Positions 39,807 to 41,016 of a DNA stretch of 64,000 nt are shown in pieces (position 1 is the first letter of the stretch; the number at the start of each line of letters is the position of its first letter). A program made the position numbers and the translations under genes. The notes beneath the pieces were generated by a model. The model was not told the origin of the DNA and ran no database searches. It saw nothing but the letters and a program-made list of their open reading frames with translations. Source of the stretch: Escherichia coli 042 (lineage in GTDB: Bacteria; Pseudomonadota; Gammaproteobacteria; Enterobacterales; Enterobacteriaceae); NCBI RefSeq assembly GCF_000027125.1, contig NC_017626.1; one strand, written 5' to 3'.

Positions 39807-40766
39807 ATGACCGAATCAACAACCTCCTCCCCGCATGATGCGGTGTTTAAAACCTTTATGTTCACACCCGAAACCGCTCGGGATTTTCTGGAAATACATC
39901 TACCAGAGCCGCTGCGCAAGCTTTGCAACCTGCAAACTTTACGCCTGGAACCCACCAGCTTTATTGAAAAAAGTTTACGCGCTTACTACTCGGATGTTTT
40001 GTGGTCTGTGGAAACCAGCGACGGTGAAGGCTATATCTACTGCGTGATTGAACATCAAAGCTCTGCAGAAAAGAATATGGCTTTTCGGCTAATGCGCTAT
40101 GCCACTGCCGCCATGCAGCGTCACCTGGATAAAGGCTATGACAGAGTTCCGCTGGTGGTGCCATTGCTGTTTTATCATGGCGAAACCTCGCCCTACCCGT
40201 ACTCACTCAACTGGCTGGATGAGTTTGACGATCCGCAACTTGCCCGGCAGTTGTACACCGAAGCTTTTCCGTTGGTGGATATCACCATCGTACCTGACGA
40301 TGAGATCATGCAACATCGGCGTATAGCTCTGCTGGAACTGATTCAAAAGCATATTCGCGACCGCGATTTAATCGGTATGGTCGACAGGATCACCACGCTT
40401 TTGGTTAGAGGCTTCACTAATGACAGCCAGCTACAAACGCTGTTTAATTATCTGCTGCAATGCGGCGATACCTCCCGTTTCACCCGCTTTATTCAGGAGA
40501 TTGCCGAACGTTCACCACTACAAAAGGAGAGATTAATGACTATTGCTGAACGGCTGCGGCAGGAAGGACATCAAATTGGCTGGCAGGAAGGTAAAATTGA
40601 AGGTTGGCAGGAGGGGAAATTGGAGGGGTTGCAGAAAGGCAAAGTAGAAGGTATGCATGAACAAGCCATTAAAATTGCCTTGCGCATGCTGGAACAGGGC
40701 TTTGAACGTGAGATTGTGCTGGCGACAACCCAACTCACTGATGCTGATATTCCGAACGGTCATTAA
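39807..40766 (+). CDS. yfaD: Rpn-family recombination-promoting nuclease (PD-(D/E)XK, YhgA-like)
   Basis: 319-aa ORF; conserved N-terminal HDAVFK motif; C-terminal short GWQEGK repeats. Confidence 0.85.
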
Positions 40767-40778
40767 AAGGAGAGATTA

Positions 40779-40976
40779 ATGACTATTGCTGAACGGCTAC
40801 GGCAGGAAGGACATCAAATTGGCTGGCAGGAGGGTAAATTAGAAGGTTTGCAGGAAGGCATGCATGAACAAGCCATTAAAATTGCTTTGCGCATGCTGGA
40901 ACAGGGCATTGATCGTGACCTGGTGCTCGCGGCCACCCAGCTAAGCGAAGCCGATCTGGCAGCGAATAACCACTAA
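40779..40976 (+). pseudogene. ypaA: Duplicated 3' fragment of yfaD (ypaA-like)
   Basis: 65-aa ORF nearly identical to the yfaD C-terminus, including its RBS (AAAAGGAGAGATTAATG). Confidence 0.7.
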
Positions 40977-41016
40977 TTAACACAGGCCCACAGCCGATCC
41001 CCATGGGCCTTTGATA

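Follow-up and report, generated by a model that had tools for sequence, protein, structure and literature searches.

The rpnE–ypaA locus of Escherichia coli 042: a probable toxin–antitoxin-like module of the Rpn family with a nested and a free-standing small gene

Organisation of the locus and its proteins

The nuclease gene rpnE of Escherichia coli 042 (contig NC_017626.1, assembly GCF_000027125.1) is followed at once by the small open reading frame ypaA, and the pair is flanked by glpC and yfaU (Table 1). Positions are those of the window, by which we mean the whole 64,000-nucleotide stretch of DNA that was analysed. The feature is the known E. coli rpnE (yfaD)–ypaA locus, which has already been described. 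It is 100% identical to that of E. coli 118UI, and its K-12 counterparts are b2244 (rpnE, yfaD) and b4543 (ypaA, annotated as a pseudogene). The gene names of the preliminary description, yfaD (now rpnE) and ypaA, hold, as does its view that a 3' module of the gene has been duplicated in tandem. The locus lies between glpC and yfaU in 5,420 of 5,426 complete E. coli genomes, with no copy on a plasmid, and its neighbours are metabolic (glp and rhm genes) and do not form a defence island. RefSeq labels the ypaA reading frame "hypothetical protein, incomplete, missing N-terminus" and the rpnE product "ISNCY family transposase".

Table 1. Features of the rpnE–ypaA locus, with positions in the window
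Feature	Position	Strand	Basis and remarks
rpnE (yfaD), RpnE_L, 319 aa	39807–40766	+	ORF; N-terminal PD-(D/E)XK nuclease domain and C-terminal HTH_Rpn_C domain; RefSeq rpnE
Shine-Dalgarno AAGGAG of the internal start	40524–40529	+	6 nt ahead of the ATG at 40536; kept in 25/25 two-copy loci
rpnE_S, 76 aa, upstream (U) copy, presumed intragenic antitoxin	40536–40766	+	Translation in the rpnE frame
U-copy hypervariable repeat tract, 5 units of 12 nt (20 residues)	40593–40652	+	Alignment; Tandem Repeats Finder
Divergent U-type tail, 21 codons and stop	40701–40766	+	25/63 bases unlike the ypaA tail
rpnE stop codon TAA	40764–40766	+	Overlaps the beginning of the second repeat copy
Shine-Dalgarno AAGGAG of ypaA	40767–40772	+	Sequence; kept in 25/25 two-copy loci
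ypaA (rpnE_Ss), 65 aa, free-standing downstream (D) copy with D-type tail	40779–40976	+	ORF; ATG after a 12-nt spacer from the rpnE stop
ypaA repeat tract, 2 units of 12 nt, KLEG LQEG	40836–40859	+	Alignment
GC-rich hairpin, likely shared terminator of convergent ypaA and yfaU	40984–41010		10-pair stem with 6 GC pairs

The hairpin that closes the locus is the sole terminator-like site after rpnE. Because no such site lies between the two genes, ypaA is probably co-transcribed with rpnE. A sigma-70 scan of positions 39500–41200 returned no promoter, so that the internal transcription start described in published work could not be placed here.

The long product is a clear member of the Rpn/YhgA-like PD-(D/E)XK nuclease family. 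It matches Pfam PF04754 (Transposase_31) over residues 8–209 with an E-value of 4.4e-88 and 294.6 bits (cut-off 21), and the NCBIfam RpnE equivalog model NF007418 with 707.6 bits (cut-off 583). The residues that matter in RpnA according to Kingston et al., namely D11, D63, E82, Q84, R94 and the PDDE aspartate D165, are all present at the same positions in the RpnE of the window. A phmmer search of RpnE against the PDB gave nothing useful, and the PADLOC defence-protein models, which include no model for these proteins, gave no meaningful match and only a weak hit to a "putative invertase". NCBIfam FliH matches to the proteins of the locus were dismissed, as they come from the charged, glycine-containing repeat. 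Overexpressed K-12 RpnE showed no activity in assays of recombination, toxicity and SOS induction, although the same construct also expressed RpnE_S.

An AAGGAG-N6-ATG signal stands in the rpnE frame at 40524–40538, and the majority of the Rpn homologue loci that we examined share it. The segment AAAAGGAGAGATTAATG has been shown to serve RpnE_S as ribosome-binding site and internal start (Zhong et al. 2023, PMC10400941; Meydan et al. 2019). Every rpn gene of E. coli has been reported to contain in-frame internal initiation, and a likeness between the internal product of rpnE and YpaA has been noted (Meydan et al. 2019, 10.1101/520783). The corresponding small C-terminal proteins, termed RpnS, are made from rpn genes (Zhong et al. 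2023, PMC10400941). For RpnE_S of K-12, the internal start has been mapped by Ribo-RET and Onc112 profiling, and the protein has been detected with an SPA tag. Rpn homologues from across Enterobacterales share the N-terminus MTIAExL, and the repeat tract of RpnE_S begins past residue 19, within the span of 8–20 residues after the methionine that serves to recognise an RpnS protein.

YpaA belongs to the same lineage. It has its own Shine-Dalgarno sequence and ATG, its reading frame opens 12 nt past the rpnE stop, and it is 83% identical to RpnE_S and 91–94% identical to the S regions of the single-copy genes of E. albertii and E. whittamii, with at most 63% identity to other Rpn S regions. The gene has been named rpnE_Ss, a second copy of RpnE_S; its product was detected with an SPA tag and its origin was ascribed to RpnE (PMC10400941). 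The question raised by the preliminary description of whether this fragment is translated can thus be answered in the affirmative for K-12 ypaA from the literature, which offers both the SPA tag and ribosome profiling.

The Pfam family PF27070 (HTH_Rpn_C) is precomputed on homologues of YpaA. In our local Pfam scan the small proteins returned sub-threshold noise only (Yae1_N, RepB_primase_C), because the Pfam copy used did not report a PF27070 match. An AlphaFold model of YpaA, built from a 44-sequence alignment of RpnS-type regions, predicts helices at residues 3–41, 46–53 and 57–62 with a mean pLDDT of 76.6; this three-helix fold was modelled on the free-standing paralogue, which here stands in for RpnE_S. 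The best PDB match of the model is the RpnA-S structure 7TH0 (probability 1.00, TM-score 0.74 on the target), and a profile of the related sequences matches the same entry at E=5.7e-12. Designer PPR proteins, which were the top profile matches in the PDB, were set aside as artefacts produced by numerous sub-threshold matches to repeats.

The duplicated module and its repeat units

The preliminary description held that the last ~240 bp of yfaD recur immediately downstream, and this was borne out: 40522–40764 recurs at 40765–40980. A repeat search of the window returned two direct-repeat matches, one of 94 nt at 94% identity (40522–40615 against 40765–40858, spacing 243) and one of 102 nt at 84% identity (40647–40748 against 40854–40955, spacing 207). 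The drop in spacing from 243 to 207 means that the copies differ in length by 36 nt. In a global alignment, 40522–40764 and 40765–40980 are identical at 182 of 207 aligned bases (88%) with a score of 220, whereas 500 shuffles scored -89 ± 13 with a maximum of -47. The self-similarity proposed between 40522–40760 and 40767–40980 is therefore strong and far above the shuffled controls. The likeness is uneven: it is near-perfect from the ribosome-binding site to the sixteenth codon past the repeats and falls to about 60% over the last 21 codons, which we refer to as the tail. The bounds of the duplicated unit are exactly the ribosome-binding site at its start and the stop codon at its end.

The 65-residue ypaA reading frame that had been claimed downstream is present at 40779–40976, and the short in-frame repeats noted within yfaD are real, being found by Tandem Repeats Finder at 40581–40652 with a period of 24 and 3 copies. 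The "short internal deletion" by which the two copies had been said to differ needs rewording. The length gap of 36 nt exists, but it is a difference of three 12-nt repeat units and not a simple deletion. In a similar way, the duplication itself is confirmed, but its treatment as a plain 3'-end fragment overlooks that the duplicated unit is a functional gene within a gene.

Repeat-unit number is the most variable property of the locus. Twenty-five two-copy loci were tabulated, namely 23 from E. coli (the window included), one from E. fergusonii and one from Escherichia sp. E4385. All 50 small reading frames in these loci are intact, with a Shine-Dalgarno sequence and an ATG, and every repeat tract is made up of whole 12-nt units. 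The tract of the U copy has 0, 1, 2, 3, 5, 6 or 8 units in other strains, that of the D copy has 0, 1, 2, 4, 5 or 6 units in other linked loci, and free-standing homologues in the protein database have 0–8. The rpnE/ypaA combination is 5/2 in the window and three other loci and 0/1 in K-12-like loci; 5/0, 5/1, 6/2, 3/1, 3/0, 8/6, 8/4, 1/4 and 0/4 were also found. Further assemblies add 0/5 and 2/5, although these are mostly short-read or metagenome assemblies and may be chimeric. In AVS0655 and AVS0247, one shared rpnE protein is accompanied by ypaA genes that are two units apart. When metagenome contigs were searched for the exact pattern of the rpnE/ypaA junction, two loci only were recovered, one of them incomplete.

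Equal repeat numbers in the two copies were found in none of 31 two-copy loci, which represent 13 distinct combinations. About 1.4 equal pairs would be expected among 13 combinations under independence, so that zero has a probability of about 0.23 and is not significant; on this ground the claim that equal numbers are avoided was dropped. The inequality still bears on function, since in RpnC the long protein RpnL is inhibited only by an RpnS of equal repeat number (PMC10400941). In the window, YpaA has 2 units and the resident RpnE_L has 5, so that by the RpnC rule the first should not neutralise the second. As the tails differ too, YpaA probably does not serve this RpnE_L as a simple spare antitoxin. 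The unequal repeat number lowers the standing of a "redundant antitoxin" reading and leaves the family membership of YpaA untouched.

The preliminary description had proposed that copy number be compared across strains. With a 151-nt query across the rpnE/ypaA junction, both copies were found in 3,133 of 5,415 complete E. coli genomes (58%); the remaining 42% or so match only the second half of the query and therefore have one copy. Copy number thus varies between strains, and to this must be added that repeat-unit number varies in both copies.

Tail ancestry and continuing rearrangement

The tails offer a view of the direction of the duplication. One-copy alleles of E. coli (O157:H7, BL21(DE3), UPEC957C and others) end in the ypaA-type tail, ...DRDxVLAATQLSEADLAANNH or near variants, with the chimeric allele L023 as an exception, and the one-copy genes of E. 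albertii, E. whittamii and two further Escherichia species do likewise. Because this tail is common to all single-copy alleles and single-copy outgroup loci examined (bar L023), it looks ancestral, and ypaA appears to keep the older C-terminus of rpnE. The direction implied by the preliminary description, in which the end of yfaD gave rise to ypaA, is accordingly doubtful.

The U-type tail stands apart. Within the window it differs from the D-type tail at 25 of 63 bases (about 40%; pS 0.66, pN 0.31), and against every D-type tail it differs at 24–25 of 63 bases (pS 0.66–0.76), compared with a pS of 0.24–0.42 among D-type tails of different species; all these divergence estimates rest on 21 codons. 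At the same time, K-12 and Escherichia sp. E4385 agree in the U tail at 63 of 63 bases. The two genomes are 94% identical in glpC, 91% in the N-terminal region of rpnE and 86% in the ypaA tail. Across the 25 loci the U tail has four variable sites only, all nonsynonymous. The ypaA tail, compared with outgroups, has a dN/dS of 0–0.26, which indicates purifying selection. The simplest reading of these comparisons is that ypaA keeps the ancestral C-terminus, in which case the rpnE tail would be a foreign or very old segment that was recently spread by recombination. No donor for it was found in 80 species-representative Rpn loci, in plasmids or in phages, and apparent E. coli "plasmid" matches to the rpnE tail were rejected as chromosome-sized records. 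Only ypaA-type tails would likewise be expected in one-copy genomes if the duplication were ancient and had been followed by concerted evolution of the 5' part and by repeated collapse, and this reading stays compatible with the data because collapse always leaves the downstream tail.

Several alleles indicate that the locus continues to be rearranged. The one-copy allele of E. coli SCPM-O-B-8794 has a chimeric tail, of which the first 39 nt are rpnE-type and the last 42 ypaA-type, and it is an unequal-crossover fusion. The one-copy tail of FDAARGOS_448 shares rare variants (MRKQ...LVQG) with the ypaA of the two-copy strain CRE78. A 165-nt block of the rpnE of the window, comprising the head, the 5-unit tract and the next 16 codons, is 100% identical to the corresponding block of ypaA in L124 and L128, both of them short-read metagenome assemblies in which chimerism is possible. 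A frameshift divides rpnE in E. albertii-type loci, leaving a 242-aa nuclease reading frame that ends in a TGA overlapping the start of the small gene. Outside E. coli, both E. fergusonii and Escherichia sp. E4385 retain the two-copy form. Elsewhere, downstream second copies are present in 2 of the 80 species-representative Rpn loci, and it has been reported that second RpnS copies can be lost by deletion or fusion (PMC10400941). That the Rpn nuclease itself may have promoted the rearrangement, as the preliminary description hints, was also raised as a speculation by Zhong et al. (PMC10400941).

Taken further, these observations could describe a recombination mosaic, in which ypaA holds the ancestral C-terminus, rpnE has a foreign or very old tail, the 5' block is shuffled between copies and ypaA acts as a store of specificity modules. 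We regard this account as possible but tentative. It would explain why ypaA-type tails occur in outgroups and single-copy alleles, why the U tail is highly divergent yet identical in K-12 and E4385, and why chimeric (L023) and collapsed one-copy alleles, the block swap seen in L124 and L128 and 13 unit combinations with none equal are all found. However, no donor has come to light, ancient duplication with collapse gives the same tails, and the lack of equal pairs is expected about 23% of the time by chance. The 0/5 and 2/5 loci are possibly chimeric assemblies, and the tail estimates come from only 21 codons.

In a more specific form of the proposal, rpnE and ypaA would be a pair of specificity cassettes that recombine with each other, and ypaA would not be a spare antitoxin. 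Here ypaA would preserve the old RpnE C-terminus, the 5' block would be mobile, the low-diversity rpnE tail would have spread, and collapse by unequal crossover would create a one-copy gene with a new C-terminal domain. This we hold to be distinctly doubtful. Were it true, the pairing specificity of toxin and antitoxin would change while the toxin and its nested antitoxin stay matched.

Interpretation and comparison with known systems

The reading that we favour, at a probability of roughly 0.85, is that the locus is an Rpn toxin–antitoxin-like module in which the antitoxin is encoded twice, once as the nested RpnE_S and once as the free-standing YpaA. In RpnA, RpnB, RpnC and RpnP2, RpnS blocks the toxic full-length nuclease RpnL (PMC10400941). 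By analogy, rpnE would encode RpnE_L, in which a PD-(D/E)XK nuclease domain is joined to a small helical domain at the C-terminus, and the internal AAGGAG-N6-ATG would yield that C-terminal domain alone as the 76-residue RpnE_S. The equivalent small protein of the four named systems binds the long protein through the shared long helix and blocks it. Tandem duplication of the stretch from ribosome-binding site through stop codon would then have produced the free-standing 65-residue ypaA. From this homology we infer that RpnE_S counteracts RpnE_L as its antitoxin and that the binding partners of YpaA are C-terminal domains of the RpnE type. Against the reading stand the inactivity of K-12 RpnE on overexpression, the blank PADLOC result and the metabolic neighbours; in addition, about 42% of E. 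coli genomes have one copy, and ypaA is flagged as a pseudogene both in RefSeq and in K-12.

These last points could also be taken to mean that ypaA is a dead pseudogene, a remnant of tandem duplication of the rpnE 3' end without a function of its own. Besides the K-12 and RefSeq annotation, the genomes that do without ypaA and the seeming inactivity of K-12 RpnE, this account can draw on frameshifted ypaA-like variants in the protein database (for example P0092, P0098, P0104 and P0112). We nevertheless consider it quite improbable: the Shine-Dalgarno sequence, ATG and open frame of ypaA are kept in 25 of 25 loci, its length shifts by whole 12-nt units, the dN/dS of its tail is 0–0.26, the protein is made in K-12, and the two-copy form is kept in E. 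fergusonii and E4385. That rpnE–ypaA is instead a mobile element with a duplicated end, as the RefSeq name "ISNCY family transposase" and a 13-nt imperfect inverted repeat bracketing the unit (39744–39756 and 41006–41018) might suggest, is very improbable, for the locus is fixed between glpC and yfaU in 5,420 of 5,426 genomes and never on a plasmid, other Escherichia loci with gene calls available have the same context, a 12/13 inverted match within 2 kb is about what chance would give (roughly 1 expected by our estimate), and Zhong et al., who found that rpn genes lack both terminal repeats and target duplications, argue against a transposase function (PMC10400941).

The locus is a textbook-style gene within a gene, for which annotation pipelines give the misleading labels "transposase" for rpnE and pseudogene for ypaA. 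Among the papers covered by our literature search, no later one on rpnE–ypaA was found, and a commentary by Koonin mentions the decoupled second RpnS copy. The population details of the locus given here were not found in the main text of Zhong et al. and are additions of this analysis. They bear on the question posed by Zhong et al. and Koonin of what drives repeat-number variation and what role a decoupled second RpnS copy plays.

The closest relative is the K-12 rpnE–ypaA locus, which is the same locus with the same flanks and the same architecture of an internal start and a free-standing copy 12 nt past the stop. The K-12 allele differs in its repeats, with 0 in rpnE and 1 in ypaA against 5 and 2 in the window, and in further substitutions, such as C318 for the G318 of the window in the RpnE tail. 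RpnA_L and RpnA_S (crystal structure 7TH0), the characterised example of the family, share with RpnE the PD-(D/E)XK domain, the key residues, the internal MTIA... start and the small helical C-terminal domain. Unlike rpnE, rpnA has no downstream second copy, and it is for RpnA that the toxicity and nuclease activity of RpnA_L and the inhibition by RpnA_S have been demonstrated. The rpnC–rpnC_Ss pair, which some E. coli have, is an independent case of the same event in another paralogue with another repeat motif (RQEG, KGIE); one such case was recovered in L077 (downstream copy 88% identical) and another in Rahnella bruchi (L057).

With classical type II toxin–antitoxin operons the locus shares the principle, here putative, that a toxic enzyme is neutralised when a small protein binds it directly, and the split rpnE of E. 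albertii-type loci resembles their two-gene layout. It differs from them in that the putative antitoxin copies the toxin's own C-terminal domain, a dominant-negative logic, and in that the small gene lies inside or downstream of the toxin gene, with an extra copy whose repeat number is unlike that of the toxin. A further parallel, cited by Zhong et al., is found in the TAEL repeats of the HsdS subunits of EcoR124I and EcoR124II, in which, as in Rpn proteins, the number of a four-amino-acid helical repeat alters specificity. In EcoR124I/II it is the spacing of a restriction enzyme's DNA target that depends on the repeat, whereas in Rpn the repeat sets the pairing of one protein with another.

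Annotation of the rpnE-ypaA unit and the inverted repeat around it

The older labels for rpnE and ypaA are misleading. Within this unit (window 39807-40976), RefSeq gives rpnE the product name 'ISNCY family transposase' and treats ypaA as an incomplete pseudogene, 'missing N-terminus', and newer records name the latter a 'Rpn/YhgA-type helix-turn-helix domain-containing protein'. Elsewhere in the same annotation, a frameshifted 'hypothetical protein' pseudogene lies upstream of glpQ (31547-32617).

An inverted repeat flanks the entire unit. A 2-kb stretch should hold roughly one match of this kind by chance alone, and the repeat was therefore treated as fortuitous. 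The terminator hairpin and the right arm of this repeat overlap.

Features of the window and of compared loci
Feature	Sequence	Position	Description
13-nt inverted repeat	window	39744-39756 and 41006-41018	12/13 complementary
IS200/IS605-type element	window	43108-44749	between yfaV and yfaY; tnpB-like gene on minus strand and partial tnpA
IS2 in rpnE	E. coli UTME-10 (L006)	2709-4947	inserted upstream of small-gene part, which is intact
Second copy of C-terminal small-protein region	E. coli SCPM-O-B-8794 (L077)	3528-3698	3' of rpnC-type gene; 88% identical
Second copy of C-terminal small-protein region	Rahnella bruchi (L057)	3679-3891	3' of Rpn gene; 58% identical
Frameshifted rpnE	E. albertii-type loci (L112-L114)	1273-2186	

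Insertions and deletions around the locus

In some strains rpnE is disrupted by insertion sequences, as by IS2 in UTME-10, and the table of matches places an IS1A element at the rpnE locus of strain FACU 2024. Deletions immediately 3' of ypaA are also present in further strains and species among the compared loci. Further downstream in the window, the rhamnonate operon seems to be truncated, because an IS200/IS605-type element stands where, in K-12, the yfaV-yfaY interval is occupied by rhmD (yfaW) and rhmR (yfaX).

Second copies and the split rpnE

Two more Rpn loci, in SCPM-O-B-8794 and R. bruchi, carry a downstream duplicate of their own C-terminal small-protein region. In the E. albertii-type loci, a frameshift in rpnE leaves a 242-aa nuclease-domain ORF whose terminal TGA shares bases with the small gene's ATG start codon (GATTGATGACT), and 88 blocks of the collection list the 61-aa small protein of such loci. 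The frameshift naturally splits rpnE into a two-gene operon resembling those of toxin-antitoxin systems.
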